64,000 bases of DNA. It comes from an uncultured Eubacteriales bacterium (GTDB lineage: Bacteria > Bacillota > Clostridia > Tissierellales > Peptoniphilaceae). The DNA lies in the NCBI GenBank assembly GCA_900539225.1, contig UQBO01000001.1:169771-233770 (forward strand). Direction: 5' to 3'. A program made the translations under genes and the position numbers. The notes beneath the pieces were generated by a model. That model saw only the letters and a program-made list of their open reading frames with translations, was not told the DNA's origin and made no database searches. Below, in pieces: positions 27,594 through 61,886 of the stretch (within the stretch, counting starts at the first letter, position 1; each line of letters begins with the position of its first letter).

Positions 27594-27631
27594 AAATTTT
27601 ATAGATTTTGTAGTATAATTAAATTTGTAAT

Positions 27632-27957: not shown

Positions 27958-27989
27958 TTTACATAAATTTTCAACAAGGGAGCAATAAA

Positions 27990-44035: not shown

Positions 44036-44941
44036 ATGAAAAAGAATTTTAAAACAAGTATAGGTGGACAAGCTTTAATCGAAGGTATACTTATGAAAGG
44101 ACCACAAATGACTTCAGTTGCCGTGAGAAAACCAGATGGCGAGATAGAAGTTAAAGTGAAAGATGAATCAGCTAAGAATAATAAGCTCATCTTCAAAATC
44201 CCATTCATAAGAGGTATATCCAAGCTAGTGGACTCAATGTCTGAAGGCACTAAAGCTCTCTATTATTCTGCTTCTTTTTATGACGATGAAGAGGACAAAA
44301 AAGAAACTAGTAAATTTAAAGATACTTTGTTTAATATTTTTACTTTTGTTTTTTCTTTTTTTATAGCTATAGGACTTTTTGTTGTAATTCCAACATTCAT
44401 AGCTAACTTCTTAAAGGATAAAATCAATAATATATTCTTACTAAACTTCGTTGAAGGCTTGATAAGGATATCTATATTTTTAATATATATTACTTTAATA
44501 TCGAATCAAAAAGATTTAAAGAGAGTATTCATGTACCACGGCGCTGAGCACAAAACCATCTTTGCTTATGAGAATGGCCTTGACTTAACTGTTGAAAATG
44601 TACAAAAGATGAGCAAGTACCATCCAAGATGCGGAACAAGCTTCTTGTTTATGGTTATGCTTGTATCAATAGTAGTTCTGTCATTCTTTGGCTGGCCATC
44701 GCCAGTAATGAGGATAGTATCAAGAATTATAGCTCTGCCACTAGTAGCTGCTATATCATACGAAATCAATAGACTCATAGGCAAGTACGATAATGTGGGC
44801 TTTTGTAGAGCAGTTGCTAAACCAGGACTTTGGCTTCAAAAGATTGCTACAGTCAAAGAGCCTGATGACGATATGGTTGAAGTAGCGATAGCGGCTGTAA
44901 AAGAGGTAATACCTAGTGAAGAAGGTTTAGACGCTTGGTAG
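44036..44941 (+). CDS. DUF1385-family membrane-associated protein (YqhQ-like)
   Basis: GGQALIEGILMKGPQ...YHGAEHKTIFAYENG. Commonly found between rpmE and prmC. Confidence 0.75.
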   Translation: MKKNFKTSIGGQALIEGILMKGPQMTSVAVRKPDGEIEVKVKDESAKNNKLIFKIPFIRGISKLVDSMSEGTKALYYSASFYDDEEDKKETSKFKDTLFNIFTFVFSFFIAIGLFVVIPTFIANFLKDKINNIFLLNFVEGLIRISIFLIYITLISNQKDLKRVFMYHGAEHKTIFAYENGLDLTVENVQKMSKYHPRCGTSFLFMVMLVSIVVLSFFGWPSPVMRIVSRIIALPLVAAISYEINRLIGKYDNVGFCRAVAKPGLWLQKIATVKEPDDDMVEVAIAAVKEVIPSEEGLDAW

Positions 44942-45750
44942 TTAAAGATATTATAAGAAAAGCTTTAGCTGATATTGAAGCGTCAGGAAAAAATATACCT
45001 AATCCAATGGGCGAGATATATATACTTCTAGAGCATATAACGAGCAAGGATAAGCTGTTTTTAAGCTTGAACAAAGATTTTGATATTGATGAAAAAGAGT
45101 TTTTTACGCTTCTTAATAAGAGGTTAAACGATACGCCCATGGCTTATATCATAGGCAAGAAGCATTTTAGAAACATTGTTCTAAAAACTGATGAAAGAGC
45201 TTTGATACCTAGGTTTTGTACAGAGGAATTAATTGACATTGTTAATGGCTTTATAAAACCAAATGATAGTGTATTAGATATGTGCACAGGAACGGGAGCT
45301 ATTGCTCTTGCTATTAAAGAAGAAAATATAAAAGTTGATGTTACTTGCTCAGATATTTCAGAAGATGCACTTAATTTAGCAAAAGAGAATGCTGAGTTGA
45401 ACAATTTATCTATAAATTTCATTTTATCTGATTTATTTGAGAATATTAGTGAAACTTATGATATACTAATATCAAACCCTCCATATATTTCTAGTGAAGA
45501 ATATATGGGTTTGGAAAGGGATATATTCAAGGAGCCTAAACTTGCCTTAGTGGGCGGCGATTTAGGATATGAATACTACGAGAAAATCATTAGACAGGCT
45601 AGAGCAAAGATTAAACGCATGGTATTTTTCGAGATTGGCTACGATCAAGGAAATATTGTAAAAGATATATTAGAAAAGAATAATTATAAAGATATTAAAA
45701 TCTACAAAGACCTTGAAGGCTTTGATAGATTTATTTCTGCCTGCATTTAG
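44935..45750 (+). CDS. prmC: Release factor glutamine N5-methyltransferase PrmC (HemK); TTG start
   Basis: NPPY motif ([11 protein letters not shown]), SAM motif [12 protein letters not shown]. Confidence 0.88.
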
Positions 45751-45761
45751 GAGATGAGAAA

Positions 45762-46832
45762 ATGTTAGAAAAATTAAATTTTATTGAAGACAAGTATAAA
45801 GAACTTGGCGAAAAGGTTATGGATCCAGATCTTTTGAAAGACATGAAAGAGTATCAAAAGACAATGAAGGAATACTCTGACTTAAAGCCAATAGTTGATA
45901 GATATAAAGAGTATCAAGGTTATTTAAATGAGCTTAAGGATACTGAAGAGATGCTTGGCGAGAACCTCGATGACGAGATGAGGGAACTTGCTAAGGAAGA
46001 TTTAAAGAATTTACAAGAAAATATTGCCAAGGCTGAAGAAGACCTTAAAATTATGCTTATACCAAAGGACCCTAACGATGACAGAAACGTTATCGTAGAA
46101 ATTAGAGGCGGTATAGGCGGCGAAGAAGCTGCACTGTTTGCAGGGGACTTATTCAGGATGTATTCTATGTACGCTGACAAGAGAGGCTACAAAACTGAAG
46201 TCATGAGTACAAACGAAACTGGTATAGGCGGCTTTAAGGAAGTTATCTTCATGATAAATGGTAAAGGCGCTTACTCAAGACTAAAACATGAATCAGGCGT
46301 TCACAGAGTTCAAAGAGTTCCTGAAACTGAAGCCTCGGGACGTATACACACATCGGCAGCAACTGTTGCTGTTATGCCTGAAGCTGATGACGTTGAAATA
46401 GAAATCAATGAAAACGATTTAAAGATTGATGTTTATAGAGCGAGCGGACACGGCGGACAATGCGTTAACACAACTGACTCTGCTGTTAGAATCACTCACA
46501 TTCCTACAGGACTTGTAGTTACTTGCCAAGACGAAAAATCACAATTAAAGAACAAAGAAAAAGCAATGAAGGTTCTTAAATCAAGACTATATGACAAGAT
46601 GCTACAAGAACAAAATGATGAACTAGCTAAGCTTAAGAAGGGCCAAGTAGGTTCAGGAGATAGGTCTGAAAGAATTAGAACATATAACTTCCCACAAGGA
46701 AGAGTAACTGATCATAGAATCAACTTAACTTTATATAGATTGGAAGACTTTTTGAATGGGGATTTAGATGAGATGATAGACGCTCTACTAACTCACGAAC
46801 AAGCAGAAAAATTAAAAGAATTGGAGGCATAA
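45762..46832 (+). CDS. prfA: Peptide chain release factor 1
   Basis: GGQ motif ([23 protein letters not shown]) and an RF1-type tripeptide region. Confidence 0.92.
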
Positions 46833-46833
46833 G

Positions 46834-48054
46834 ATGAAAGCATCTCTTAGTATTAAGAAATCGATTTTAGCCTTGCAACACTTGATTGCTATGTTTGGAG
46901 CTACAGTTTTAGTTCCTATACTTACAGGACTTGATCCATCAGTAGCACTTTTCAGTGCTGGATGTGGTACACTTATATTCCACTATTGCACAAAGAAAAA
47001 AGTGCCAGTATTTTTGGGCTCATCATTTGCATTTATACCAGTTATAGTGCAAGTAGCTGAGCAATATGGCGATCTTAGATACGCTCAAGGCGGTATGCTG
47101 GTAGCAGGTTTGGTCTATGTATTATTTTCATTCTTCATTAAAGGCATAGGCATAGAAAAAATACAAAAGATACTACCGCCACAAGTAATTGGACCTATGA
47201 TTATAGTTATAGGCTTCAATCTATTGCCAACAGCGTTTAATATGGCAAAGACATCATATATAGTAGCTGGACTTACACTTGCAGTTGCTGTAGCTTGGCC
47301 ATATTTAGTTAAAGGTTTCTTAAAGCAAATATCTATACTCGTTGCAGTAATATTTGGCTATATACTATCAGTTGCTTTAAAACTTGTTGACTTTACAGCA
47401 ATAAATAATGCTCAATATTTTGCAGTGCCAAACTTTACTTTGCCACTGTTTAATATTGAAGCTATTATAATCATTGTTCCAATAATATTTGCTGTATTTA
47501 TGGAACACTTAGGTGATATCACTACTAATGGAGCAGTAGTTGGACAAAACTTTGTAGAAGATCCAGGTCTTAACAGAACTTTACTTGGCGATGGTTTAGC
47601 AACAGTATTTGCTTCACTTATTGGTGGACCAGCTAACACTACTTATGGCGAAAATACTGGAGTTTTAGCTATTACAAAGAACTACGACCCATCAATACTA
47701 AGACTTGCAGCAGTCTTTGCCATCATCCTAGGATTTGTTGGTAAGCTTGGAGGCTTCTTAAGAACTATACCACAAGCAGTTATGGGTGGCATATCAATTA
47801 TGCTTTTCTCAATGATAGGCTTTATTGGATTTAGAAACATTAGAGATAATCATGTTAAATTAAATATAAAAAATATCATAGTTATGGCAGCAATTCTTTT
47901 CATAGGATTTTCAGGCGGTTTATTTAAAGAGTTATTTGGCTTTACTATAGAGCTTCCTATAACTGAAAGTATCAGTCTTAACGGACTAAGCTTAGCAGCT
48001 ATAGTTGGTATTTTATTAAACGCTATTCTTAATGGAGTGAAGAAGGATGCTTGA
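46834..48054 (+). CDS. Nucleobase:cation symporter-2 family permease (uracil/xanthine permease)
   Basis: About 12 TM helices with an NCS2 signature region (…GDGLATVFASLIGGPANTTYGENTGVLAITK…). Confidence 0.8.
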   Translation: MKASLSIKKSILALQHLIAMFGATVLVPILTGLDPSVALFSAGCGTLIFHYCTKKKVPVFLGSSFAFIPVIVQVAEQYGDLRYAQGGMLVAGLVYVLFSFFIKGIGIEKIQKILPPQVIGPMIIVIGFNLLPTAFNMAKTSYIVAGLTLAVAVAWPYLVKGFLKQISILVAVIFGYILSVALKLVDFTAINNAQYFAVPNFTLPLFNIEAIIIIVPIIFAVFMEHLGDITTNGAVVGQNFVEDPGLNRTLLGDGLATVFASLIGGPANTTYGENTGVLAITKNYDPSILRLAAVFAIILGFVGKLGGFLRTIPQAVMGGISIMLFSMIGFIGFRNIRDNHVKLNIKNIIVMAAILFIGFSGGLFKELFGFTIELPITESISLNGLSLAAIVGILLNAILNGVKKDA

Positions 48055-48787
48055 TATTGATCTTTTGGTCCAAGAAGTAAAAAAATCAAAACACATGGTT
48101 TTCTTTGGAGGTGCAGGTGTTTCGACTGAGAGCGGTATACCTGACTTTAGAGGAGCAGGTGGCCTTTACAACGACAGGCTTTATGAAGGATATGAACCAG
48201 AAGTGGTTTTGAGCAATTCATTTTATCGTGCTCATCCGGATATATTCTTTGACTTTTGCAGAGATAAGGTTATATATGAGAATGTTAAGCCAAATGAAGG
48301 ACATAAGGCGCTTGCAAGACTTGAACAGATGGGTATACTAAAAGCAGTTATCACTCAAAACATAGACAATCTTCATCAAGACGCTGGCAGCAAGAAAGTT
48401 ATTGAGCTTCACGGCAATATTAATAGGTCTTATTGCACTAAGTGCCATAAAGAATTTGACGCAATGTATATCAAGCACTCAAAAGGTGCTTGTACTTGTG
48501 ATGAGTGCGGCGCATTGATTAAGCCGGATGTTGTTTTATACGGCGAAGCTCTAGATGATAATGTGATTAGTGAAGCTATAAGAGAGATATCTATGGCGGA
48601 TTTGCTTTTAGTCGCTGGAACATCACTAAAGGTATATCCAGCAGCCGGACTAATTAGATACTTTAATTCAGACAATTTAGTAATTATAAATAAGGATAAA
48701 ACGTCTTACGATAGATATGCAAAACTTGTTTTTCATGAAGGTTTTGGAAAGATATTAAAAGAAGTGGTGGATAGAATTGACATATGA
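48047..48787 (+). CDS. cobB: NAD-dependent protein deacylase (Sir2 family)
   Basis: GAGVSTESGIPDFRG, the Zn module CxxC...CxxC, and GTSLKVYPAA. Confidence 0.88.
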   Translation: MLDIDLLVQEVKKSKHMVFFGGAGVSTESGIPDFRGAGGLYNDRLYEGYEPEVVLSNSFYRAHPDIFFDFCRDKVIYENVKPNEGHKALARLEQMGILKAVITQNIDNLHQDAGSKKVIELHGNINRSYCTKCHKEFDAMYIKHSKGACTCDECGALIKPDVVLYGEALDDNVISEAIREISMADLLLVAGTSLKVYPAAGLIRYFNSDNLVIINKDKTSYDRYAKLVFHEGFGKILKEVVDRIDI

Positions 48788-49994
48788 TGCTATAGTCATA
48801 GGAGCAGGTGCAGCAGCACTATTTTTTGGGGCTCTTAATAAGGATAAATTAAATATACTTATGCTTGAGCGAAACGATAGAGTCGGCAAAAAGCTCCTTA
48901 CTACTGGCAATGGCAGGTGCAACTACACTAACACAAAGCTTAATGAGAACCCATATAACGATAAGGCCTTTACTTCATATATGATTGAAAAATATGGCTA
49001 TGAGACAATTTTAGAAAAGTTCAAGGCTATGGGCATATATCCATATATGGAAGATGACAGAGTCTATCCTATGTCACTACAAGCGTCAAGCGTCCTTGAC
49101 GTACTTAGATATGAAAATGATAGAAACAATATAAATATAAAAACTGATGTATTTGTAAAAAGCTTTCATAAAGCTGATGATATCTTTGTACTTAAAGATC
49201 AAAACTCAAATATTTATAAGGCTAAGAGCTTAGTTATAGCTTGCGGCGGCGCTGCTATGCCGAAATTTGGTTCAGACGCTAATCTATTTAAGCAAATAAA
49301 AGAGCTTGGTATATCTGTAATTGATACAAAGCCAGCTCTAGTACCATATGAGTGTGATTATAAGTACTTAAAGCACTTAGATGGATTTAGAGTAAAAGCA
49401 AAACTAAGTTTAAAAAAGGGAGATAAGATTATCAAAGATGATGTAGATGATGTTTTATTTACAAAATATGGCCTATCTGGCCCAAGTGTATTTCAATTAT
49501 CTAGATACATTAAGGGCAAGGAAAGTGTTTATAAATTTAGCATAGACTTTTTTTATACATTTACTGAAGAAGAAATGTTTGCTTTATTAAGCGAAAGAAG
49601 AAAAGATTTAGGGCACAAGAGTCTAGATGTTTTTTTTATTGGTCTTATACACAAAAGGCTTATAATTCCTGTGATAGATAGACTTGGTCTTGCTAAAGAA
49701 ATGCTTGCTAAGGATTTAAGCGAGAATGATTTACATAAAATAATAAAAATATTAAAAGATTTTGAATTAGATATTATAAAAAATAAAGGCTATGGCATTG
49801 GCCAGATAAGCCTTGGTGGAGTAGCTAGTAAAGAGATAAATAATAAGACTATGGAGTCAAAGAAAGTTTATGGACTATACTTTATCGGGGAAGTCATTGA
49901 CATAGACGGCCCATGTGGAGGCTACAATCTAAGCTTTGCGTGGTTATCTGCCATGGCGGCATATGACGATATAAGATCGAGGTGGAAGGCTTGA
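48777..49994 (+). CDS. HI0933-like (aminoacetone oxidase family) FAD-dependent oxidoreductase; TTG start
   Basis: YDAIVIGAGAAALF dinucleotide-binding motif; about 400 aa with the family-typical C-terminus. Confidence 0.7.
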   Translation: MTYDAIVIGAGAAALFFGALNKDKLNILMLERNDRVGKKLLTTGNGRCNYTNTKLNENPYNDKAFTSYMIEKYGYETILEKFKAMGIYPYMEDDRVYPMSLQASSVLDVLRYENDRNNINIKTDVFVKSFHKADDIFVLKDQNSNIYKAKSLVIACGGAAMPKFGSDANLFKQIKELGISVIDTKPALVPYECDYKYLKHLDGFRVKAKLSLKKGDKIIKDDVDDVLFTKYGLSGPSVFQLSRYIKGKESVYKFSIDFFYTFTEEEMFALLSERRKDLGHKSLDVFFIGLIHKRLIIPVIDRLGLAKEMLAKDLSENDLHKIIKILKDFELDIIKNKGYGIGQISLGGVASKEINNKTMESKKVYGLYFIGEVIDIDGPCGGYNLSFAWLSAMAAYDDIRSRWKA

Positions 49995-51289
49995 TAAATT
50001 ATCAAAAGAAATTTTATGAATATAAAGAAAAAGGTAAAAAGATAAATGTTTCCTTACTAGGAGCAGGCTTTATGGGCAAGGCACTAGTAAGTCAATATAT
50101 ACAAAGCGGGGTTTTAAATCCCTTACTAATATCTTCAAGACATATTGAAGACGCGATTGATGCTTATCTTGCAGCAGGTATTGCTAGAGAAGATATTATT
50201 AAGATCACTAGCTCTGACGAAATTAGTGATTTAAATAAGTATTATATATGTGAGGACAAAGAGCTCTTATACAAATCAGAGCACATTGATTATGTAATCG
50301 ATGCGACAGGAGAGCCAATTGTCGGCACTGAAATCAGTTACAACGCTTTAATGAATGGCAAAAATGTAATTACATTTAACTTAGAGAGCGATGTCTGCGT
50401 TGGAACAGTGCTTTCAAAGATAGCTGAAGAAAAAGGACTTATATATACAGGCATCGATGGCGACGAGCCAGGAACAGTGCTTGAGCTTTATAATGAAGCT
50501 AAAATAATGGGCTTTGATGTTTTAGCTATTGGCAAAGGAAAGAATAATGAAGTCGATTTAGAAGCTAATCCGGACACAGTAAGTGAATCTGCCAACGAAA
50601 AGGGCATTAAAAAAGAGATGCTAGCAAGCTTTGTAGACGGCACTAAGACCATGGTAGAGATGGCTACTATGAGCAATGCGACTGGATTTAGAGTGGATGT
50701 CGATGGCGGACACGGAATCAAATCCGATATCAAATCGCTTGACAAGAAACTTTGCCTTAAATCAGAAGGCGGCGTACTTAACTCATACGGCATAGTTGAC
50801 TATGTCAATGGCATAGCGCCAGGCGTCTTTGTTATAGTTAAGAGCGACATAAAGAAGATTGATCACTTAATGAGATTTTTAAAGATGGGCGAAGGTCCAA
50901 ATTATGTTTTATACAGACCTTACCATTTGACCAGCATAGAGACTATAAACACAGTATTAAAGGCACATTTCGACAAGCTCGAAGCTATAAAACCTATATC
51001 TGAAATACCATACTCAGATGTAGTTTCTATTGCTAAGAAGGACATGAAGAAAGGCGAGAAGCTCGATTACATCGGAGGCTACACATTTTATGGCAAGTGC
51101 ATGGACTTTGAAAAGTCAAGAGAAAAGAATTTAGTGCCTATATCCGTCATAAACGAAGGCGCAGTCCTTAGTAGAGATATTAAAAAGGGCGAAAATATTG
51201 ATTATAATAGCGTAGAACTTGATAGTGAGACGCTTGTATATAAACTTAGAAAAGAAATAGAAGCAAAGTACGAAGCTTCAAGGAGGTAA
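49982..51289 (+). CDS. NAD(P)-binding oxidoreductase, predicted homoserine-dehydrogenase-like (COG4091-type, with a SAF-like C-terminal domain); GTG start
   Basis: Rossmann motif VSLLGAGFMGKAL; the size and motif spacing resemble COG4091 proteins. Assigned from memory. Confidence 0.45.
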   Translation: MEGLINYQKKFYEYKEKGKKINVSLLGAGFMGKALVSQYIQSGVLNPLLISSRHIEDAIDAYLAAGIAREDIIKITSSDEISDLNKYYICEDKELLYKSEHIDYVIDATGEPIVGTEISYNALMNGKNVITFNLESDVCVGTVLSKIAEEKGLIYTGIDGDEPGTVLELYNEAKIMGFDVLAIGKGKNNEVDLEANPDTVSESANEKGIKKEMLASFVDGTKTMVEMATMSNATGFRVDVDGGHGIKSDIKSLDKKLCLKSEGGVLNSYGIVDYVNGIAPGVFVIVKSDIKKIDHLMRFLKMGEGPNYVLYRPYHLTSIETINTVLKAHFDKLEAIKPISEIPYSDVVSIAKKDMKKGEKLDYIGGYTFYGKCMDFEKSREKNLVPISVINEGAVLSRDIKKGENIDYNSVELDSETLVYKLRKEIEAKYEASRR

Positions 51290-51291
51290 TT

Positions 51292-54200
51292 ATGGACTTA
51301 AAAGCTTTATCAAATGATCGCGTAGCCGATAGAGAACATCAAATATCTGAATATTGGAAGAGTATCGATCTACTTAAATTAACAAACGATAAAAGAGATA
51401 AAGACAATAGATATGTTTTCTTCGAAGGCCCACCAACAGCTAACGGAAAGCCTGGTATACATCACGTAAGTGGCAGAACACTAAAGGACTCTGTCTGCAG
51501 ATATAAGGTTATGCAAGGCTACTACGTAAACAGAAAAGCCGGTTGGGATACTCACGGACTACCTGTTGAAATTGAAACTGAAAAACAATTAGGACTTCAT
51601 AATAAACAAGATATAGAAAAGTATGGCGTAAAAGATTTTAATGAAAAATGTAAAGAGTCAGTATTTAAGTATGAGTCACTATGGAGACAGATGACTGAAA
51701 AGATGGCTTATCTAATTGATCTTGACAATCCATATATAACTCTTGATAATGACTACATCGAATCTACTTGGCATATACTTGATAAGATGTTTAAGGATGG
51801 ACTAATTTATGAAGGTCACAAGATTATGCCTTATTGCCCAAGATGCGGCACAGGACTTGCTTCACACGAAGTAGCTCAAGGCTATGAGATGATTAAAAGT
51901 GAATCAGCTTATGTTAAGTTCAAAAAGAAAGATGCTGATAATGAGTACTATCTTGCATGGACAACAACACCATGGACTCTTCCTTCAAATGTAAGCTTAA
52001 CAGTTAATAAAGATTTTGATTACATTAAGATAAAACATAAAGAGACTGGCGAGATACTTTACTTAGCTAAGTCACTTTTCAAACAAGCACTTGAAAAAGA
52101 CGCAGAAAACTATGAAATAATAGCTGAGATGAAGGGATCAGACCTAGTTGGAGGCGAGTACGAACAATTACTGCCATATTTACCTTGTGATAAAAAAGCT
52201 TTCTTCATAACAGAAGCTGATTACGTTACTATGGAAGATGGTACTGGTATAGTTCACACAGCACCAGCCTTTGGTGAAGACGACTATAATACATCAAGAA
52301 GATATGATTTACCAGTTCTTAATCCAGTTGACGAAGAGGGTAAGTTTACAGATACTCCTTGGAAAGGCATGTGGGTTATGGATGCTGACCCATTGATCAT
52401 TGAAGAGCTAAAAAAAGAAAATAAATTATATAGAAAACAAAAGATAGAGCACAACTATCCACATTGCTGGAGATGCCACACACCACTTCTTTATTATGCA
52501 AAACCATCTTGGTATATAGAAGTAACTAAGTTTAAAGACAAAATTGTTGAAAATAACAATACAGTTAATTGGTATCCAGACTATGTTGGTGAAAAGAGAT
52601 TTGGTTTCTGGCTAGATAACCTAAAGGACTGGGCTCTATCTAGATCAAGATACTGGGGAACACCACTACCAATTTGGAAGTGCGAAGACTGCGGTCATAT
52701 GGAAAGCGTTGGCTCAAGAAAAGAACTTAAGGAAAAAGCTATTGAAGATATAGATGAAAACATCGAATTGCACAGACCATATGTTGACGACGTTCATCTA
52801 GAGTGTCCACACTGTCATGGCAAGATGACTAGAGAAAAGGATGTAATTGACGTTTGGTTTGACTCAGGCGCAATGCCATTTAGCCAATGGCACTATCCAT
52901 TCGAGCATACTGAAGACTTTGATCACAAGTTCCCAGCAGACTTCATCTGTGAAGGCATAGACCAAACAAGAGGCTGGTTCTACAGCTTACTTGCTATATC
53001 AACATATATGACTGGTAAGGCTCCATATAAAAACGTTCTTGTAAACAACTTAGTACTTGATAAGTACGGTAAAAAGATGAGTAAAAGCAGGGGCAATACC
53101 ATAGACCCATTCGAGCTATTTGACGAATATGGTGCAGATGCTGTAAGATGGTATCTATTATACGTATCACCAGCTTGGACTACTAAGAAAGTCGATGTAG
53201 ATGGCTTAAAAGACATCAGCTCGAAATTCTTTAACACACTTAGAAATGTATATAACTTCTTCTACATGTATTTACAAACCGATGGCATTGATCCAAAGAC
53301 ATTAGACGTACCATATGAAAAGAGAAGCGATATAGACAAGTGGATACTTGCTAAATATAACAAACTTCTTCTAAATATCGAAGAAGAGATGGATAAGTTC
53401 GAGCTAACAAATGTAGTTAGAATGATACAAGATTTTGTAGTTGAAGATATATCAAACTGGTATATCAGACGTTCAAGAAGAAGATTCTGGGCTACAGAGC
53501 TTGATGATGATAAGAAGGCAGTTTTACAAACAACATACGAAATACTTCTTGGAGTTTCTAAGGTCATAGCACCATTTGCTCCATATACAGCAGAAGAGTT
53601 CTATCAAAGACTTGGAGATCTAGAATCAGTTCACATAGACTATTATCCAAAGGCTAATAAAGACCTAATCGATGAAAAACTTATTTACAAGATGGATTTA
53701 GTTCGTACACTTGTAAAACTAGGTAGATCATCAAGAGAGAATGCTAAGATCAAGGTAAGAATACCTCTTAACGAGATAGTTATCGATGGTAAGTATAGAG
53801 AAGACCTAGAAGACTTGACAGACTTAATCAAGGAAGAGCTTAACGTAAAGAACGTTTACTACGAAGATGATTTGAAGAAGTACATGAATTTCAACTTGAA
53901 GCCGAACTTCAAAGTTGCTGGCTCAATACTTGGATCAAAGATTAAGGACTTCACTAAGTATCTATTAAATGTTAATAGCATAGACTTTGTAGACAAGCTT
54001 GACCACGCTGATCAAACTGTTGAGCTTAATGGTGAAGCGACTGAAATCAAAAAAGATTATGTAGATGTAAGAATCGAGTCCAAAGAAGGCTTTAATGTCG
54101 AAATGGAAAATGGTGTATTCATCATACTTGATACTAAGTTAACAGAAGAACTTCTTGATGAAGGCTACTTAAGAGAGTTTATATCAAAGGTACAACAACT

Positions 54201-54402
54201 TAGAAAGCAAAATGATTTCGACGTGCTAGATAAGATTAAGATCTATGTTGATGCAAATGATGATTTGAAAGCTATCTTTGAAAAGTTCAAAGACTTTATA
54301 CTAAAAGAAACAGTTGCAGATAGCATTGAATACAAAGAACTTGATGTAGAAGAAACAGACTTAAATGGTAAGACTGTAAAGATATTTGTTGAAAGAATAT
54401 AA
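51292..54402 (+). CDS. ileS: Isoleucine--tRNA ligase (type 2, long form)
   Basis: HIGH-region PPTANGKPGIHH, KMSKS, the IleRS-specific CWRCHTPL motif, and a C-terminal Zn-binding extension; 1036 aa. Confidence 0.88.
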   Translation: MDLKALSNDRVADREHQISEYWKSIDLLKLTNDKRDKDNRYVFFEGPPTANGKPGIHHVSGRTLKDSVCRYKVMQGYYVNRKAGWDTHGLPVEIETEKQLGLHNKQDIEKYGVKDFNEKCKESVFKYESLWRQMTEKMAYLIDLDNPYITLDNDYIESTWHILDKMFKDGLIYEGHKIMPYCPRCGTGLASHEVAQGYEMIKSESAYVKFKKKDADNEYYLAWTTTPWTLPSNVSLTVNKDFDYIKIKHKETGEILYLAKSLFKQALEKDAENYEIIAEMKGSDLVGGEYEQLLPYLPCDKKAFFITEADYVTMEDGTGIVHTAPAFGEDDYNTSRRYDLPVLNPVDEEGKFTDTPWKGMWVMDADPLIIEELKKENKLYRKQKIEHNYPHCWRCHTPLLYYAKPSWYIEVTKFKDKIVENNNTVNWYPDYVGEKRFGFWLDNLKDWALSRSRYWGTPLPIWKCEDCGHMESVGSRKELKEKAIEDIDENIELHRPYVDDVHLECPHCHGKMTREKDVIDVWFDSGAMPFSQWHYPFEHTEDFDHKFPADFICEGIDQTRGWFYSLLAISTYMTGKAPYKNVLVNNLVLDKYGKKMSKSRGNTIDPFELFDEYGADAVRWYLLYVSPAWTTKKVDVDGLKDISSKFFNTLRNVYNFFYMYLQTDGIDPKTLDVPYEKRSDIDKWILAKYNKLLLNIEEEMDKFELTNVVRMIQDFVVEDISNWYIRRSRRRFWATELDDDKKAVLQTTYEILLGVSKVIAPFAPYTAEEFYQRLGDLESVHIDYYPKANKDLIDEKLIYKMDLVRTLVKLGRSSRENAKIKVRIPLNEIVIDGKYREDLEDLTDLIKEELNVKNVYYEDDLKKYMNFNLKPNFKVAGSILGSKIKDFTKYLLNVNSIDFVDKLDHADQTVELNGEATEIKKDYVDVRIESKEGFNVEMENGVFIILDTKLTEELLDEGYLREFISKVQQLRKQNDFDVLDKIKIYVDANDDLKAIFEKFKDFILKETVADSIEYKELDVEETDLNGKTVKIFVERI

Positions 54403-54486: not shown

Positions 54487-55959
54487 TTATTTCTTTCTCT
54501 TAATCGTATTCATTATATCTCTTGCTACGGTTCTACCTATTTGATAAGTGAAGGCACTAAAGACTCTCTTTAAAATTTTATCTGCAGTACTTTCATTTCT
54601 CTTCTTTTGATTTTGCTTTGTTCTGTATTCTTTTTGTGCATCTTTTTCAGCTTTTTCAGCTTCCATTTCTTTATTGATTTGGATGTATCTTTCACTAAGT
54701 ATCTCATATGCTGATTCTCTGTCAATTGGCTCTTTGTACTTAGAGTTAAAATCTGAATTATTAACAATCTCATTAAATACAGCTTCATCTATCATACCAA
54801 TCTTTGACATAGGTGGCCTTATAAGAGTTATCTCAGCTATGGATGGCTCACCATCTTCATTAAGCGTAGAGACCAAGGCTTCACCAGTTTTTAAATTCAG
54901 TATAGCTTTTTCGCTGTCAAAGTTTGGATTCTTCCTAAAACTATCAGCAGCATATTTAACATTCTTAATCTCATTAGGAGTGTAGGCTCTTAAAGCATGT
55001 TCGATTCTGTTAGATAATTGGCTTAAAACTTCTTCAGGTATATCCTTAGGATTTTGCGTAACGAAGAAGATACCAACACCTTTAGACCTTATAAGCTTGA
55101 TAATAGTAACGATGTTTTCAAGCATCTTTTTATTTAAGTCTTTAAAAATTAAGTGAGCCTCATCTAAGAATAATACCAGCTTTGGTTTATCAAGATCACC
55201 AACTTCATCAAGACTAGTAAATATTTGACTAAGTAGATAGATTACAACTGATTGATACATCTTTGAGTTAAGGTAGAGCTCTGTACAGTTGAGTATGTTT
55301 GCTGTGCCTTTTTCACCATTTTTCACTAATAAATCATCTACATCGAAAGATGGTTCACCAAAGAAGTCAATTGCTCCTTCATTTTCAAATCTAATAAGAG
55401 TTCTTTGTATAGCATTTATACTTTGCTTAGCAACATTGCCATATTTATTTGAAATATCACTAGAGAAGTCCGCCATATACTTAAGCATAATCTTTAGATC
55501 TTTAAAATCGATAAGCTTAAGCTCGTTCTCGTCGGCAATTTTATACATAACATCGATGACGCCGCTTTGCACATCATTCAGCCCAAGCATCTTAGATAGT
55601 AGAACTGGACCTATATCTGTAACAGATGCTCTTAGCGGAACACCTTTTTTATATATATCAAAAATTTCAACAGGGAAGCTATCAACTTGGTAGTCATCTA
55701 TACCAAGCTTAGCAAGTCTTTCATCAATCTTATCATTTCTCTCACCGTTTTCAGCTAGACTCATAATGTCGCCTTTAACATCGGTAATGAATGTGTTGAT
55801 GCCGTCGTTATTTAGCATTTCACTAATTACTTTTAATGTAACAGTCTTACCAGTACCAGTCGCTCCTGCTATGATGCCGTGTCTATTTAGCATCTTAGGG
55901 TTCAAATATACTTTTTCGTTCTCTCCACCTAGTAAATATTTCATAAAATCACCTCTCAC
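54487..55959 (-). CDS. DUF853-family NTPase (YjgR/HerA-like P-loop ATPase)
   Basis: GIIAGATGTGKTVTLKVISE Walker A. About 490 aa with a basic C-terminal tail. The start may be MKYLL at 55942. Confidence 0.7.
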   Translation of the reverse strand: MRGDFMKYLLGGENEKVYLNPKMLNRHGIIAGATGTGKTVTLKVISEMLNNDGINTFITDVKGDIMSLAENGERNDKIDERLAKLGIDDYQVDSFPVEIFDIYKKGVPLRASVTDIGPVLLSKMLGLNDVQSGVIDVMYKIADENELKLIDFKDLKIMLKYMADFSSDISNKYGNVAKQSINAIQRTLIRFENEGAIDFFGEPSFDVDDLLVKNGEKGTANILNCTELYLNSKMYQSVVIYLLSQIFTSLDEVGDLDKPKLVLFLDEAHLIFKDLNKKMLENIVTIIKLIRSKGVGIFFVTQNPKDIPEEVLSQLSNRIEHALRAYTPNEIKNVKYAADSFRKNPNFDSEKAILNLKTGEALVSTLNEDGEPSIAEITLIRPPMSKIGMIDEAVFNEIVNNSDFNSKYKEPIDRESAYEILSERYIQINKEMEAEKAEKDAQKEYRTKQNQKKRNESTADKILKRVFSAFTYQIGRTVARDIMNTIKRKK

Positions 55960-56059: not shown

Positions 56060-56812
56060 TTGGAAATAAATAAGGAAGTAGTCGCTAAAGTATGCGGCAA
56101 AGAAATTAAAAAAGAAGACGTTGTAAACTTTGCAAATATGCTTGGACCACAACTAACTATGCAGTTCCAATCAAAGGACGGAGTTAAAAAATTAGTTGAA
56201 GAGATGGTTAATCAAGCGATGTTATATAATAATGCTATCGATGAAAAACTAGACGAGAGTGAAGAGTATAAAGCTGAGATGGCAAAGGCTAAAGAAAATA
56301 TCTTAACTAATATAGCTTTTAAAAAGGCTCTTGAATGTGAAGAAGCGACAGATGAAGAACTTAAAAACTATTATAACGAATTTAAGGATGAATTTTCTGA
56401 ACCTGAATCAAGATCTGCTAGCCATATCTTAGTTGATAATGAAGATAAAGCAAAGGATATCAAGGCTAAAATTGATAAGGGCGAGGACTTTGCAAGCCTT
56501 GCTCAAGAACACTCTGCATGCCCATCTAAGGCTAATAGTGGAGACTTAGGTACATTCCATAGAGGACAAATGGTTAAGGAATTTGACGACAAGGTATTCT
56601 CAATGAAGCTTGGAGAAGTTTCTGAGCCAGTTAAGACTCAATTTGGCTATCATATAATCAAGTTAAATAAGATTAATGATGCAAAAGCTAGATCATTTGA
56701 TGAAGTTAAAGATGAAGTGCGTGCTCATGTTATGCAAATTAAACAAATGAACGCATTTAAGGCAGTAATTGACAGCTTAAAGGATAAATACAAACCAGAA
56801 ATATTTGTTTAA
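56060..56812 (+). CDS. Parvulin-type peptidyl-prolyl cis-trans isomerase (PpiC/PrsA-like, no signal peptide); TTG start
   Basis: SASHILVDNEDKAKDIKAKIDKGEDFASLAQEHSACPSKANSGDLGTFHRGQMVKEFDDKVF...GYHIIKL parvulin domain. Confidence 0.8.
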   Translation: MEINKEVVAKVCGKEIKKEDVVNFANMLGPQLTMQFQSKDGVKKLVEEMVNQAMLYNNAIDEKLDESEEYKAEMAKAKENILTNIAFKKALECEEATDEELKNYYNEFKDEFSEPESRSASHILVDNEDKAKDIKAKIDKGEDFASLAQEHSACPSKANSGDLGTFHRGQMVKEFDDKVFSMKLGEVSEPVKTQFGYHIIKLNKINDAKARSFDEVKDEVRAHVMQIKQMNAFKAVIDSLKDKYKPEIFV

Positions 56813-56831: not shown

Positions 56832-58169
56832 ATGAGGCTTGAATTATTTGATTTTATTGATGACACTATAGATTTACTTGAAGAAAATAATGATAAATTG
56901 GAAGAAGTATTAGAGATTTTGGAAAATTTCTTTACTAATACATTCTGTGCTAAGGATCACTTTCTAGCTGCTAGAGGCAGAGTTAAGGAAGCTACTTCAC
57001 TTAGAGAGAAGATACTTAGAAACAATTTATACACTGAGTACAAGACGCCAGAGAACCTTATGGAGAACATCTCAGATATCATAGGTGTTAGAATTGAATG
57101 TAGGTTCATTGACGACGAAAAGAAAATTTATAGAGACTTACTAAACTTATTCAATTATAAAGAGGACAGGGGATACTACTCAAGCCATATCAATAAAAAG
57201 ATATATCTAAAGCTATCTGAAGAGCAGCCACAATTACAAAAGAATGGTTTTGAGATCTACAAGATAGATGGCAAGTATGTTGATGATGACGGCAAGAAGA
57301 TTCACTTTGAGCTTCAAATAAAGTCACTAGTCAATGTATTCTGGGGAGACATAGACCACAAAGTCCTATATAAGAACTACAACTACGTACTTACAGAAGA
57401 TTTCTTTATAGACATCATGGCAACTATTAAGGATAATTTAACTATGGTTGATAGACAGCTTATGAGTGTTTATAACCATCTTAATAGGTCTGACTCAAGT
57501 GTGCAGGTTAATAAGAAGAAGCAACTTGTTAAGCTTGTATCAAAGACTATACACGATATATTTAAATCAAAGGTTAAGAGCGATTTAGGTTATATTATTG
57601 ACTACAAGGACTCCTGCGACATGATTAGCGAGTACTTATTTATGAAGGCTCAAAGAAAATCTGCTAAAGATATATCACAAGAGTTTGTTGATTTAGTAGG
57701 AAGATTATCAGATATACAGGAAAATCTTGGCCCTATAACAAACTATATAGAGTTTGAGAGAAAGCCTGTGTTTAACGATACTTTCACTCAAAGCTTAGGT
57801 GACGAAATACTAAAACTTATAAATACTGATTTTAAGTGGAATTTATTCTTTAGGATAATATTTATTATTGAAAAGGGTACTAATGTTGAAGACTTTGAAG
57901 GCTTCATAATATTCTTAAGATACAAGTTCTATGAATCAGTTGCTCTAAGCATTAGAAATAAGGATATGTCAAAGGAAGAGAAAGAGTTTATAATTAACTA
58001 CTACCTTGATCAAATAAGCTATGATTTTAAGAAAAAACCCGAACTTTCATTTATAACTGATGAAAATATTAACGAAATTAATAAAAATATTAGTCTCGAA
58101 TTAGTTAATATATCTAATTTTGAGGACTTTTCCGAACAAATTTTAGAAAGAGGAGAAACAGATGAGTAA
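56832..58169 (+). CDS. RelA/SpoT-homolog (small-alarmone-synthetase-like) nucleotidyltransferase-domain protein with a roughly 230-aa C-terminal extension of unknown function
   Basis: ARGRVKEATSLREKI...ISDIIGVRIECRFIDD...GYYSSHI...KIHFELQIKSLVNVFWGDIDHKVLYK parallels the RelQ/SAS motifs (RVKS...DIAGIRVIC.F.DD...GY.S.H...VEIQIRT...W...EH...YK). Confidence 0.6.
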   Translation: MRLELFDFIDDTIDLLEENNDKLEEVLEILENFFTNTFCAKDHFLAARGRVKEATSLREKILRNNLYTEYKTPENLMENISDIIGVRIECRFIDDEKKIYRDLLNLFNYKEDRGYYSSHINKKIYLKLSEEQPQLQKNGFEIYKIDGKYVDDDGKKIHFELQIKSLVNVFWGDIDHKVLYKNYNYVLTEDFFIDIMATIKDNLTMVDRQLMSVYNHLNRSDSSVQVNKKKQLVKLVSKTIHDIFKSKVKSDLGYIIDYKDSCDMISEYLFMKAQRKSAKDISQEFVDLVGRLSDIQENLGPITNYIEFERKPVFNDTFTQSLGDEILKLINTDFKWNLFFRIIFIIEKGTNVEDFEGFIIFLRYKFYESVALSIRNKDMSKEEKEFIINYYLDQISYDFKKKPELSFITDENINEINKNISLELVNISNFEDFSEQILERGETDE

Positions 58170-58512
58170 AGATAAAGATTTTATTGACGAACACGATTGC
58201 TGCTGCCACGACGAAGACTGCGGCTGCGGACATGATCACGAACATGATGATTGCGACTGTGAAGACACAATGATCATCACTTTAGATGACGGAACAGAGC
58301 TTGAATGCGCTGTACTTGATCTATTTAATTACAAAGGAGACGACTACATTTTCTTGTTCCCACTAGACGTAGAAGAGGAAGAAGAGTACGTTTATCCTTA
58401 TAAGTACATCGAGCATGAAAATGATGTCGATGTTGAACTAGAAGTCGTAGATGACGCAATCATAGACGAACTTATGGAAGAATTTTATAATAAAAACGAG
58501 GTAGATGAGTAA
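58162..58512 (+). CDS. DUF1292-family protein with a Cys/His/Asp-rich N-terminal extension
   Basis: The core MIITLDDGTELECAVLDLFNYKGDDYIFLFP matches DUF1292. It is preceded by DEHDCCCHDEDCGCGHDHEHDDCDCED. Confidence 0.6.
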   Translation: MSKDKDFIDEHDCCCHDEDCGCGHDHEHDDCDCEDTMIITLDDGTELECAVLDLFNYKGDDYIFLFPLDVEEEEEYVYPYKYIEHENDVDVELEVVDDAIIDELMEEFYNKNEVDE

Positions 58513-59464
58513 TATTATAAGCTTTGAGGAAGAGAAAAAACTCTATAGAGTCTACTCGGAGTACTTAAGAAATAAATTTCACACTAAGGTTTATAAGCTT
58601 CCTATCAGTCTAAACATAACTTGTCCCAATAGAGACGGATCAAAGGCTTATGGCGGCTGCATCTTTTGCACAGCAGAGGGAGGCAGCTTTGAGAATTTGT
58701 CTAATAAACTATCTGTTAAAGAGCAGATTGAGCAAAACAAGATAAATATCACGAAGAACCATAAGGCTACTAAGTTCATAGCTTATTTCCAAAACTTTTC
58801 TAATACTTATATGCCACTAGATCAGTTTAAGGAAAATATTATGAACGCGATTCAGGAAGATGTTGTTGGAATTAACATATCGACAAGGCCTGATTTAATC
58901 TTTGATGATTACATGAAGTTTTTGAAGGATGTAAAGGATGAGTATAATCTTGAGATAACTGTTGAACTGGGCTTACAGAGCTCAAATGATGAGACGCTTA
59001 AGATATTAAACCGTTGTCATAGTACTAATGACTATATCAATGCATGTCAAACATTATCAAAGTACGGAATAAGAAAGGCAGCTCACTTGATACTTGATTT
59101 GCCATGGGATAGCGTAGAAGACATATATAATGACGCTAGGCTCATTAACATGACAAAGACGGATGAAGTAAAACTTCATAGCTTATACATAATGGAAGGT
59201 ACTAAGATAGCCCAGATGTATAAAGCTCATGAGTTTAAACTATTAAACAGAGAAGACTATGTAGATAGAGTAGAAATTTTCTTAACTCATATAAAAGATG
59301 ATATAATTATACAAAGATTGGTCGGAAGATCCGATGAAGAGGGAACGATTCATTGCAACTGGGGCGAATCTTGGTGGAGAATAAAAGATTCCATATTAGA
59401 ACAAATGAAAAGAAAATCAAATTACCAAGGTAAATATTTTAAGGAGGATGATTTTTATGGTTAA
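58505..59464 (+). CDS. Radical SAM protein, TIGR01212 family (YhcC/YtqA-like)
   Basis: CPNRDGSKAYGGCIFC, a non-canonical radical SAM cysteine motif typical of TIGR01212. Confidence 0.75.
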   Translation: MSNIISFEEEKKLYRVYSEYLRNKFHTKVYKLPISLNITCPNRDGSKAYGGCIFCTAEGGSFENLSNKLSVKEQIEQNKINITKNHKATKFIAYFQNFSNTYMPLDQFKENIMNAIQEDVVGINISTRPDLIFDDYMKFLKDVKDEYNLEITVELGLQSSNDETLKILNRCHSTNDYINACQTLSKYGIRKAAHLILDLPWDSVEDIYNDARLINMTKTDEVKLHSLYIMEGTKIAQMYKAHEFKLLNREDYVDRVEIFLTHIKDDIIIQRLVGRSDEEGTIHCNWGESWWRIKDSILEQMKRKSNYQGKYFKEDDFYG

Positions 59465-59876
59465 ATTAATCTTAGGAGCAAAAGGTGCAGGAAAGACTAA
59501 GTGGTTAATCAATGGTGCTAACGATGACATTAAGTCAGGTAACGGCAACATTACGTTCTTAGATGTTGAGGACGAACACATATTTTCTCTAGACACTAAC
59601 GTTAGACTTATTAACTTAAGCGACTACAGTGTAAATTCTATTGAAAAGTTCTATGGCTTCTTGCTTGGAATGCTATCTATGGACTTCGACCTAGAAAAAA
59701 TTTATATCGACAGTATTTATAAGATTATCGATATTAAGAAAGAAGATTTAAAATGCTTAGTAAAGAATTTAGATGAAATTTCTGAAAAGCATGATGTAGA
59801 CATACTTATCAACGTTGACTACGTAGCTGATGAAGTAGACAGTGACTTAAGGAGTTATGTAGAAGAAGTTAAATAA
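59457..59876 (+). CDS. Small P-loop (Walker A) protein of unknown function
   Basis: MVKLILGAKGAGKTKWL. GGAGG RBS 9 nt upstream of the ATG at 59457; overlaps the radical SAM gene stop. Confidence 0.45.
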   Translation: MVKLILGAKGAGKTKWLINGANDDIKSGNGNITFLDVEDEHIFSLDTNVRLINLSDYSVNSIEKFYGFLLGMLSMDFDLEKIYIDSIYKIIDIKKEDLKCLVKNLDEISEKHDVDILINVDYVADEVDSDLRSYVEEVK

Positions 59877-59893
59877 TTAGAAAGTGGTATTTA

Positions 59894-60445
59894 ATGCTTT
59901 ATGTAAAGAGGAAGAATCTTTTTGAGGTATTTTTAGAGAAGAGACATTCTTTGATCATACAGTTCAACAACGGTGACTTGACGAAGAAGGAGTTTCTTCA
60001 AGAGAATTTCAATTTTATTACTAGTCTAAACATCAAACCTTTTATTAAGATTGATTCATTTGAAAAGGGCATGTTTAACTACCAATACTATAACTCACTT
60101 GCTAAATATTATCTGATGCTTGCAAACGAGATAAAAAACACAAACAAGCACAAAAAGTACTTTGTTGAGTACAAAAATACTGGGCTAAGTTTGTATCATC
60201 AAAAAGATTTAACGACTATAAGCATACTAAGGCTGGTTGACTTTGAGAATGTTGATGCGTACTACGTTAAAACAAATTCAAAGTTCTTAAATGGCAAGCT
60301 TTATGAGATAGTCTTAAGTGACTATAATGAAGCAATCTTCCATTCGAAAGCTTTGTGGCTTGTAGACATTTTGAGAGAGAAGAACGTTTTTAGTGAAAAG
60401 AAGAAAGAGTCGGTAATAGATTCGTATATAAATAAACTCTACTAG
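59894..60445 (+). CDS. Hypothetical protein (183 aa), last gene of the operon
   Basis: ORF with an RBS; no recognisable motifs. Confidence 0.4.
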   Translation: MLYVKRKNLFEVFLEKRHSLIIQFNNGDLTKKEFLQENFNFITSLNIKPFIKIDSFEKGMFNYQYYNSLAKYYLMLANEIKNTNKHKKYFVEYKNTGLSLYHQKDLTTISILRLVDFENVDAYYVKTNSKFLNGKLYEIVLSDYNEAIFHSKALWLVDILREKNVFSEKKKESVIDSYINKLY

Positions 60446-60470
60446 TTTTAGTAGAGTTTGTTTTTTATAT
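60434..60470 (+). terminator. Terminator hairpin overlapping the stop codon of the operon's last gene
   Basis: ctctactag-tttt-agtagag hairpin, then tttgtttttt. Convergent with fetB. Confidence 0.5.
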
Positions 60471-60481
60471 TGACTTTTCTA

Positions 60482-61252
60482 TTAGAATAGAATTTGCTCT
60501 CTATCGTTAAAGAAAGCTTTGTATGCAAGCGAAGTAAATATGCTTGTAGTGATACCGACAGTGCCGACTATGGCTATCATGATCGTTATTTGATATAGTA
60601 TAGCAGACATCGGGTCTGTGCCAGATAGTATTTGTCCAGTCATCATGCCAGGCAAAAGCACTATGCCCATGCCGAGCATTGAGTTAAGTGTCGGTAGTAT
60701 GGCTGAGCTAAATGCTTTTCTCGATATTCTTAACACAGCATCCTTAGGTTTTGCACCAAGCATAAGTGCCGACTCAATCGTATCTCTTTGATCATTAAGA
60801 GAATTTTTATAAGAGTTAATCGCAAGACTCATGCCTGTCATTGTATTACCGATAAGCATTCCTGAGATAGTTATGAAATACCTTGGGTCGTACCATGGTC
60901 TAACGCCTACAACGACTATGATGTAGTAGAATATTGACACTAAACTTGATCCTATAAAGCATATTGCTATAAGCTCTTTAAGCTTGATAGATTTAACCTT
61001 GCTTCTTTTGTATACATTAAATATTGCAAACGCTTCCATAATTATAAGTATCAAAATTGTTATCCATGGACTATCGCTCTTTAGAATGTATTTTAGTAAG
61101 TAGCCTGTTATAATTAATTGGATTGTCATTCTTAGTGAAGCGACTATGATTAGTCCTTGATTTGATAGACCCTTTATCTTTGAAATTACTAGCAGTACTA
61201 TGATAAATACAAAAGATAGGGAGAGCTGTAATATTGAAATTTCAGTTAACAT
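60482..61252 (-). CDS. fetB: ABC exporter permease, FetB/YbbM (UPF0014) family
   Basis: About 250 aa polytopic permease translationally coupled to the upstream ABC ATPase. ATG at 61252 with an AAGGAGG RBS. Confidence 0.65.
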   Translation of the reverse strand: MLTEISILQLSLSFVFIIVLLVISKIKGLSNQGLIIVASLRMTIQLIITGYLLKYILKSDSPWITILILIIMEAFAIFNVYKRSKVKSIKLKELIAICFIGSSLVSIFYYIIVVVGVRPWYDPRYFITISGMLIGNTMTGMSLAINSYKNSLNDQRDTIESALMLGAKPKDAVLRISRKAFSSAILPTLNSMLGMGIVLLPGMMTGQILSGTDPMSAILYQITIMIAIVGTVGITTSIFTSLAYKAFFNDREQILF

Positions 61253-61253
61253 A

Positions 61254-61886
61254 CTAGGCCTCCTTAATCGTCGCAATCTTATTCTTGATGCTAATCACTT
61301 GATCAGCAAGGGAGAATATTTTTTCTGAGTGCGATACAATAATTATCTTCTTATCTCTTTCTTTTAAGTACTTAATCACATTACTTATAAGCTTGTATTC
61401 GGTCTTTTCATCAAGTGAGGATGTTGGCTCGTCAAATAGATAGACTTCAGCATCCATTGCCAAGACCCTCGCTATCGATAGTCTAGTCTTTTCTCCGCCA
61501 GAGAAGTCCTTTGGATTATCATTAAGATCTTTATCAAGCAAAACTATATCAAGCAGTTCTTTTAGTTTCGCATCATCAAGAGCGTCTATACCACTGAATT
61601 TTCTAGCTATATTTAAATTGTATCTCACATCGCCTTCGAAGATAGCGGGGAATTGAGACTGCATAATAACTTTTCTTCTTAATTCATGTGCTTTATATGT
61701 CTTAATATTGTCGCCTTTGTATAAAATATCGCCGCTATCAGGGCTTATAAGGTCATCAAGCATTTTTAAGAGAGTAGATTTACCGCTGCCACTCGGACCC
61801 ATAATCATAGTTAGGCCATTATCATCAATAGACAGATGCTCTATGCTAAGAATATCTTTGAATTTTATATTTTTTAGTTCAAACAT
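61254..61886 (-). CDS. fetA: ABC transporter ATP-binding protein, FetA/YbbL-like
   Basis: Walker A GPSGSGKSTLL, signature FSGGEKTRLSIAR, Walker B YLFDEPTSSLD. Confidence 0.8.
   Translation of the reverse strand: MFELKNIKFKDILSIEHLSIDDNGLTMIMGPSGSGKSTLLKMLDDLISPDSGDILYKGDNIKTYKAHELRRKVIMQSQFPAIFEGDVRYNLNIARKFSGIDALDDAKLKELLDIVLLDKDLNDNPKDFSGGEKTRLSIARVLAMDAEVYLFDEPTSSLDEKTEYKLISNVIKYLKERDKKIIIVSHSEKIFSLADQVISIKNKIATIKEA

Follow-up and report, generated by a model that had tools for sequence, protein, structure and literature searches.

A gene array at positions 56832-60445 of a 64,000-nucleotide stretch of contig UQBO01000001.1 (assembly GCA_900539225.1, an uncultured Eubacteriales bacterium; the whole stretch is hereinafter referred to as the window) starts with a gene for a long protein with a RelA/SpoT synthetase domain, which is related to the small alarmone synthetases (SAS), and continues with genes for a DUF1292 protein, a radical SAM enzyme, a small P-loop protein and a DUF6648 protein. 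The window shares 100% identity with the genome of uncultured Fenollaria UMGS167 (Tissierellia). Comparative analysis of sequences, predicted structures and gene neighborhoods supports the assignment of the first gene product as a true homolog of RelA/SpoT synthetases with an apparently intact active site; on balance, we favor a function as a regulated (pp)pGpp synthetase, the main alternative being a different acceptor. As a set, the five genes likely represent a lineage-specific compaction of an old housekeeping synteny block of Tissierellia and not a dedicated multi-gene system. The initial annotation of this DNA had proposed a module for a nucleotide messenger or for nucleotide modification, with a radical SAM reaction coupled to it; this proposal agrees neither with the assignment of the radical SAM protein as MnmL, a tRNA enzyme, nor with the frequency of direct adjacency of the genes, which amounts to 9 of 64 loci in one of the neighborhood surveys described below and to 5 of 39 in the other.

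The SAS-like protein and its active site

The Pfam profile RelA_SpoT matches residues 49-183 of the SAS-like protein (445 amino acids, aa) over profile positions 1-111 of 113, with a score of 53.3 bits against a cutoff of 27, and a phmmer comparison with the RelP and RelQ chains of the PDB gives E~1e-7, so that the homology initially read from the sequence is upheld by significant matches in searches with profile hidden Markov models. In the AlphaFold2 model (pLDDT, predicted local distance difference test, 91.9), the protein consists of an alpha/beta domain (residues 1-185) and an all-helical domain (residues 189-444). The best Foldseek matches of the N-terminal domain are RelQ (5ded, 5dec) and RelP (6ex0), with E~1e-8 and a target TM-score of 0.72-0.76, and the top 39 PDB matches are RelQ/RelP-type SAS structures throughout; similarity to FaRel2 (8pu3, 8pu4), CapRel (7ztb), an exported Streptomyces SAS and the N-terminal domain of Rel is much weaker.

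A word-indexed homolog search with the SAS-like protein, which is 95% identical to its counterpart in F. massiliensis, yielded 1449 matches. The family, hereinafter long-SAS, is present in at least 577 species-level genomes, among them those of Tissierellia, Clostridium, Acetoanaerobium, Brevibacillus and Turicibacter, and the 134 representatives of clusters at 50% identity with E<1e-30, mainly 445-530 aa long, could be aligned end to end. The family includes a sister subgroup (P0218-P0266) of proteins of 500-535 aa, with ~25-35% identity to the SAS-like protein of the window and a longer and more divergent C-terminal region. We found no published characterization of any long-SAS family member in the literature.

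Across 114 aligned members of the family, R50, K52, K60, D82, G85, E96, N138, E160, Q162, H176, Y180 and K181 are invariant, and S56, E59, R63, C90, Q132, P133, Q136, G139, Y143, K164 and W171 are nearly so. In HMMER alignments, R50/K52/S56/K60/D82/G85 correspond to R78/K80/S84/K88/D107/G110 of S. aureus RelP, and E160/Q162/K164/H176/Y180/K181 correspond to E174/Q176/R178/H190/Y194/K195. The invariant residues aligned with RelP are those that we take to be the ATP-phosphate and Mg/catalytic positions of the RelQ and RelP structures; they include the catalytic Asp (D82) and Glu (E160), both of which had been correctly considered intact.

The acceptor side is less canonical. The motif GYYSSH (residues 114-119), previously taken for a hallmark block of SAS, is poorly conserved, with the Gly present in 57 of the 114 members, and is not the SAS GYRSxH block. 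Its conserved counterpart appears to be a family-specific acceptor-site block, Q132-P133-x-x-Q136-K137-N138-G139-x-x-I142-Y143-[RK]144-I-D146-G147. In the MAFFT alignment, N138-G139 is paired with N149-G150 of RelP and F140 lies opposite the Tyr of GYRSLH; this pairing implies a hairpin loop three residues shorter than that of RelP, which is consistent with the strand boundaries in the model. The placement of the beta-hairpin by hmmalign is shifted by a few residues from that by MAFFT, and the assignment of the acceptor site is tentative.

The C-terminal domain of ~260 aa, all-helical in the model, has no Pfam match in any of 38 family members (0/38) and no match among the PDB sequences. The earlier description of a protein about twice as long as RelQ/RelP, with an uncharacterized C-terminal half, is accurate. 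The two domains differ in the rate of evolution, the C-terminal one evolving about twice as fast as the N-terminal one (20% vs 39% mean pairwise identity).

Predicted function of the SAS-like protein

In the mechanism that we favor, the N-terminal domain, which combines the RelQ/RelP fold with a complete ATP pyrophosphate-donor and catalytic site, would transfer pyrophosphate from ATP and thereby yield (pp)pGpp, the 3'-OH of a guanine nucleotide being the presumed acceptor, and the fast-evolving helical domain would act as a regulatory or oligomerization module. Several observations weigh against this assignment. The column aligned with the guanine-stacking Y151 of RelP is variable (F in 48 members, L in 15, Y in 13, H in 12 and K in 10), the acceptor-site motif departs from GYRSxH, and the score with the RelQ/YjbM equivalog model is 40.8 bits, well under the cutoff of 320. 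The lack of conservation in the Y151 column, the low equivalog score and the family-specific acceptor block (QPxxQKNGxxIY[RK]IDG) are what would be expected if the protein were an active pyrophosphokinase with a non-guanine acceptor, for example, ATP or ADP, which would be converted to (pp)pApp, or the 3' end of an RNA. Given that the nearest relatives in both sequence and structure are the (p)ppGpp-making RelQ and RelP, that the alignment of the beta-hairpin could be off by a few residues, and that the SAS-like gene behaves like a non-toxic core chromosomal gene, a non-guanine acceptor appears unlikely. The two-domain layout, with the C-terminal half evolving at about twice the rate of the N-terminal domain, and the weak Foldseek matches to CapRel (7ztb) and FaRel2 (8pu3/8pu4) could also be explained by a fused toxin-antitoxin or defense protein of the CapRel type, a toxic SAS (toxSAS) in which the N-terminal pyrophosphokinase is inhibited by a variable C-terminal sensor. 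We consider this highly improbable: PADLOC gives no match for the SAS-like protein, phages yield weak matches to the SAS domain only, no full-length copies were found in phages or on small plasmids, and the matches in the plasmid collection are a C. butyricum replicon (~0.8-0.88 Mb) and a 2.6 Mb record. Furthermore, the housekeeping synteny is stable, the fold is closer to RelQ/RelP than to toxSAS, and the neighboring genes vary by lineage, with neither a conserved adjacent antitoxin gene nor a defense or mobile context.

Regulated synthesis of (pp)pGpp is thus the reading that we retain. At a minimum, the family provides a modest lead, being a widespread SAS homolog of Firmicutes, including gut and clinical anaerobes, in which the active site is complete, the acceptor motif is unusual and the helical domain is unclassified.

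Gene neighborhoods and the origin of the cluster

The neighborhoods were surveyed at 82 loci of SAS-like genes in reference genomes and at 80 metagenome loci anchored at the P-loop gene, 39 of which include at least 9.4 kb of upstream sequence. In the SAS-anchored survey, 9 of 64 loci have the DUF1292 gene no more than 300 nt downstream of the SAS-like gene; these loci belong to Fenollaria, a relative with 63% identity, Ezakiella and a metagenome-assembled genome. At 41 of 56 loci, the DUF1292 gene is found somewhere within 10 kb, the gaps reaching up to 9.2 kb, and 13 loci (Clostridium spp., Brevibacillus, Acetoanaerobium, Wansuia and others) lack any of the partner genes. The genes that occupy the gaps between the SAS-like and DUF1292 genes encode MsrA, a PepD-like M20 dipeptidase, a ferritin-like protein, LrgA/LrgB, a GAF protein and a DNA methylase; those in Tissierella encode DUF4153, MsrA, a SPASM radical SAM protein and NrdD/NrdG. 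Among the 39 P-loop-anchored loci, 5 have the SAS-like gene directly next to the block, 24 have it at a distance of 1.5-7 kb and 10 lack it. At one locus (L122:7861-11117), the genes for a peptidyl-prolyl isomerase (PPIase), DUF1292, MnmL, the P-loop protein and DUF6648 follow each other in series, with no SAS-like gene in the 10 kb upstream; in this lineage, the SAS-like gene has been lost or moved from the block.

The SAS-like gene of C. butyricum, of another Clostridium and of Turicibacter is solitary with respect to these partners and is found beside GNAT and 2'-5' RNA ligase-family genes, PolC or asparaginase. On pCFSA3989, the second replicon (~0.8-0.88 Mb) of C. butyricum, the family member lies between the genes for a GNAT acetyltransferase and a 2'-5' RNA ligase-family protein (2H phosphoesterase) (L085:6247-8996). 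The gene for NudC is located 4 kb upstream of the C. butyricum family member, possibly by coincidence.

The expectation that the five genes co-occur in related genomes is borne out only weakly, in that direct adjacency is seen in Fenollaria, Ezakiella and close kin, the genes are syntenic in other Tissierellia but set apart by 1.5-9 kb that encode unrelated housekeeping functions, and the SAS-like gene stands alone beyond this class. The tight packing itself has to be viewed against its surroundings. Adjoining genes abut or overlap nearly everywhere in the window, functionally unrelated pairs included. In particular, the co-directional run at 44935-54402, which encodes PrmC, PrfA, a uracil permease, an NAD-dependent deacylase, an FAD enzyme, a putative DRL-type oxidoreductase and IleS, shows overlaps of 8-13 nt or gaps of 2 nt despite the unrelated functions, and therefore small overlaps carry no functional information in this genome.

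Compaction of an ancestral gene order, which we consider the likely explanation for the whole set, would have occurred through the loss, in Fenollaria, of the genes that part the PPIase, SAS-like, DUF1292, MnmL, P-loop and DUF6648 genes in related genera; the pattern would then reflect an ancestral Tissierellia gene order condensed in small genomes and not a co-inherited functional cassette. Two points weigh against this interpretation: the SAS-like gene and the DUF1292-MnmL-P-loop-DUF6648 block are found on the same strand and in the same order in ~70% of the Tissierellia loci, and the start/stop overlaps in Fenollaria would permit translational coupling. If the genes formed a true Tissierellia module, in which the product of the SAS-like protein, an alarmone or another pyrophosphorylated nucleotide, regulates the tRNA/rRNA-modification block (DUF1292, MnmL, P-loop and DUF6648) or the protein is regulated by it, one would expect the order and orientation to be conserved within 10 kb, as they are in 41 of 56 SAS-anchored and 29 of 39 P-loop-anchored loci, and the 8-nt overlaps in Fenollaria as well as the location of the block amid translation and RNA-modification genes (IleS, PrfA/PrmC, an RsuA-like pseudouridine synthase) would fit. 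Such a module nevertheless appears very unlikely given that unrelated genes intervene in most genera, that 10 of 39 loci have no SAS-like gene in the vicinity of the block and L122 skips it, that outside Tissierellia the members of the family are never found with these neighbors, that Ezakiella has the SAS-like, P-loop and DUF6648 genes but no MnmL there, and that overlaps are a general trait of this genome. A module of this kind would have implied a new second-messenger or radical-SAM pathway, and the evidence does not support it. Also quite unlikely, in our view, is a housekeeping role of long-SAS as a pyrophosphokinase for which the acceptor or the product is non-canonical and whose helical C-terminal domain senses the status of translation or RNA modification, the class-wide synteny then reflecting a real link between alarmone-type signaling and tRNA wobble modification.

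MnmL and the associated P-loop and DUF6648 proteins

The radical SAM protein scores 290.9 bits with TIGR01212, against an equivalog cutoff of 180, with residues 13-313 aligned to profile positions 1-301 of 302. It contains the Pfam domains Radical_SAM and Radical_SAM_C, and the radical SAM Cys triad C40, C52 and C55 (CPNRDGSKAYGGCIFC) lies inside the Radical_SAM domain match. The current name of TIGR01212 is MnmL/YtqA. Genetic analysis in S. mutans and B. subtilis ties MnmL/YtqA to mnm5s2U synthesis (bioRxiv 10.1101/2023.12.21.572861), and the E. coli homolog YhcC converts cmnm5s2U-tRNA to nm5s2U-tRNA in vitro (10.64898/2026.05.18.725915). Given the family assignment and the published genetics and biochemistry, the radical SAM gene is not an orphan: as judged from the match to the equivalog model, its product is MnmL, the tRNA wobble-uridine demodification enzyme, which would strip the carboxymethyl group from cmnm5s2U34 of tRNA. 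The TIGR01212 and DUF1292 calls of the initial annotation are correct, and so is its statement that the array is not a described toxSAS pair.

The metal-rich character previously ascribed to the DUF1292 protein is evident in its N-terminal tail (residues 1-36, 58162-58270; CCCHDEDCGCGHDHEHDDCDCED), which is rich in Cys, His and Asp. Similar Cys/His-rich tails, with variable HD repeats or CGCGCG runs, are present in most of the Tissierellia DUF1292 orthologs (40+ loci), which suggests that the tail binds metal, on a protein that is usually encoded just upstream of the Fe-S enzyme MnmL.

The mini P-loop protein, rightly recognized from the outset by the Walker A motif GAKGAGKT in a protein of 142 aa, shows in addition a weak match to AAA_14. 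Across Tissierellia, it is more conserved than its neighbors: its mean column identity is 65%, and 37 columns are invariant. The gene that directly precedes the P-loop gene is that of MnmL in 29 of 29 loci of the SAS-anchored survey and in 54 of 59 loci of the P-loop-anchored survey. In 53 of 53 loci, the P-loop gene is followed, at a distance of no more than 1.7 kb, by the DUF6648 gene, whose product had been labeled hypothetical. The conserved unit in Tissierellia is MnmL-P-loop-DUF6648, an association of which we found no description in the literature; nor did the literature yield anything functional on DUF1292 or DUF6648. Searches of the PDB sequences with the P-loop, DUF1292 and DUF6648 proteins produced no match, and a homolog search with the P-loop protein gave near-identical Fenollaria sequences only and was uninformative.

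In the Ezakiella-type loci (L050, L060, L062, L067, L068, L074, L096, L098, L104, L108 and L157), the SAS-like, DUF1292, P-loop and DUF6648 genes are arranged in tight order and MnmL is not there, which indicates that the P-loop/DUF6648 pair is not strictly dependent on a neighboring MnmL. The mini P-loop NTPase and DUF6648 make up a tightly linked pair that usually follows MnmL, with RNA-modification genes nearby in other loci. As judged by sequence motifs, in many Tissierellia (L107, L114, L119, L143) a gene for an RsuA-like S4-domain pseudouridine synthase is found between the P-loop and DUF6648 genes, and a gene for a Cof-type HAD phosphatase between those for DUF1292 and MnmL. The observation that MnmL of Tissierellia is nearly always followed by the P-loop NTPase and DUF6648, and not by MnmM, is another modest lead: these two proteins could bear on the last steps of mnm5s2U formation, or on a related RNA modification, in these anaerobes.

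Organization of the locus in the window

Table 1. Genes, domains and terminator of the cluster, with positions in the window
Feature	Position	Strand	Support
PrsA/PpiC-type peptidyl-prolyl isomerase (PPIase) gene	56060..56812	+	Pfam Rotamase_2/3, E~1e-26
SAS-like gene, RelA/SpoT synthetase domain, N-terminal, residues 1-185	56832..57386	+	PF04607, E=3.9e-14
SAS-like gene, C-terminal all-helical domain, residues 186-445	57387..58169	+	
DUF1292 protein with Cys/His/Asp-rich N-terminal tail	58162..58512	+	PF06949, E=3.1e-9
MnmL/YtqA radical SAM enzyme, predicted tRNA modification (cmnm5s2U -> nm5s2U)	58505..59464	+	TIGR01212, E=9.7e-87
Mini P-loop NTPase, 139-142 aa	59448..59876, alternative start 59457	+	Walker A GAKGAGKT
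DUF6648 protein	59894..60445	+	PF20353, E=1.6e-68
Intrinsic-terminator-like hairpin, bidirectional	60430..60463	both	15-bp stem and T-run

The five co-directional open reading frames (ORFs) are present on the forward strand as initially annotated (Table 1); the operon itself appears to extend further. The end of the PPIase gene is separated from the SAS-like gene by 19 nt that contain no terminator, and the hairpin downstream of the DUF6648 gene, a single strong terminator, is the sole terminator-like site on the forward strand between 56060 and 60463. The co-directional unit therefore probably consists of six genes, with PPIase as the first, that are co-transcribed up to this hairpin. Of 73 loci, 20 have the PPIase gene as the immediate upstream neighbor of the SAS-like gene. 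The ORFs of the SAS-like protein and DUF1292 and those of DUF1292 and MnmL each overlap by 8 nt and those of MnmL and the P-loop protein by 17 nt, so that an overlap of 4 nt, which had been reported, is not among them. The start of the P-loop gene is ambiguous: initiation at the ATG three codons downstream, with which many database entries of this protein begin, gives a 139-aa product and reduces the overlap with MnmL to 8 nt. A promoter scan was uninformative (30 sites vs 30.9 expected), and a search of Rfam revealed no riboswitch or leader near the cluster.

The cluster resides in a leading-strand core region (RNase P RNA, RuvA, YbeY, EF-P, NusB, XseA, PrmC, PrfA, IleS) and has no anomaly in GC content, which is uniform over the window. 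The only Rfam match in the window is the bacterial RNase P class A RNA (27631-27961, 281.5 bits). Downstream, convergent genes on the reverse strand (60482-61886) encode a FetB-like UPF0014 permease, with a score of 153.9 bits that is below the NCBIfam cutoff of 410, and a FetA-like ABC ATPase, and use the shared terminator. Upstream, divergently from the PPIase gene, a HerA_C/DUF87 ATPase (PF05872, E~1e-168) is encoded on the reverse strand (54487-55959); it is syntenic upstream in several Tissierellia loci, its PADLOC matches to HerA/mad8 are weak and its context is housekeeping.

Comparison with known systems

RelQ (YjbM/SAS1) and RelP (YwaC/SAS2) share with the SAS-like protein the fold, the motifs RxKxxxSxxEK, DxxGxR, ExQx[KR] and WxxxxH...YKN, and a chromosomal location outside any toxin-antitoxin pair. 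Unlike these single-domain proteins of ~200-250 aa, the SAS-like protein is about twice as long due to the additional ~260-aa helical C-terminal domain, and its family appears to have NGxxIY[RK] where RelQ and RelP have GYRSxH.

A further SAS subgroup, the Firmicutes-only cloRel, is present in C. difficile, C. perfringens, C. tetani and Finegoldia magna, a member of Tissierellia that has Rel and cloRel only (Atkinson et al. 2011, PMC3153485). Compared by taxonomic range only, the distribution of cloRel resembles that of the long-SAS family, and the long-SAS protein may be the only SAS besides Rel in Tissierellia. A homolog search seeded with the C. butyricum protein yielded no named long-SAS member from C. 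perfringens or C. tetani. The sole match labeled as C. difficile (P0434) was discarded, as it forms a one-member cluster with the gene context of an unclassified Clostridium and we regard the label as unreliable.

As in the SAS-like protein, the layout of CapRel(SJ46) and FaRel2 includes a RelA/SpoT-type synthetase domain with a following or paired regulatory element, and the C-terminal extension of CapRel governs its activity. In contrast to these toxSAS, the long-SAS family is structurally far from them, has no match in the defense library, is located off mobile elements and shows stable housekeeping synteny.

The MnmL-MnmM (YtqA-YtqB) pathway of mnm5s2U synthesis in Bacillus and Streptococcus is the system to which the radical SAM gene of the cluster, with its score above the MnmL equivalog cutoff, is to be compared. 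There is no methyltransferase in the cluster, and MnmM is not among the window ORFs scanned (small ORFs encoding RuvA, YbeY, EF-P, NusB and others). Whereas MnmM is the usual neighbor of MnmL in that pathway, MnmL is followed here by the mini P-loop NTPase and DUF6648.

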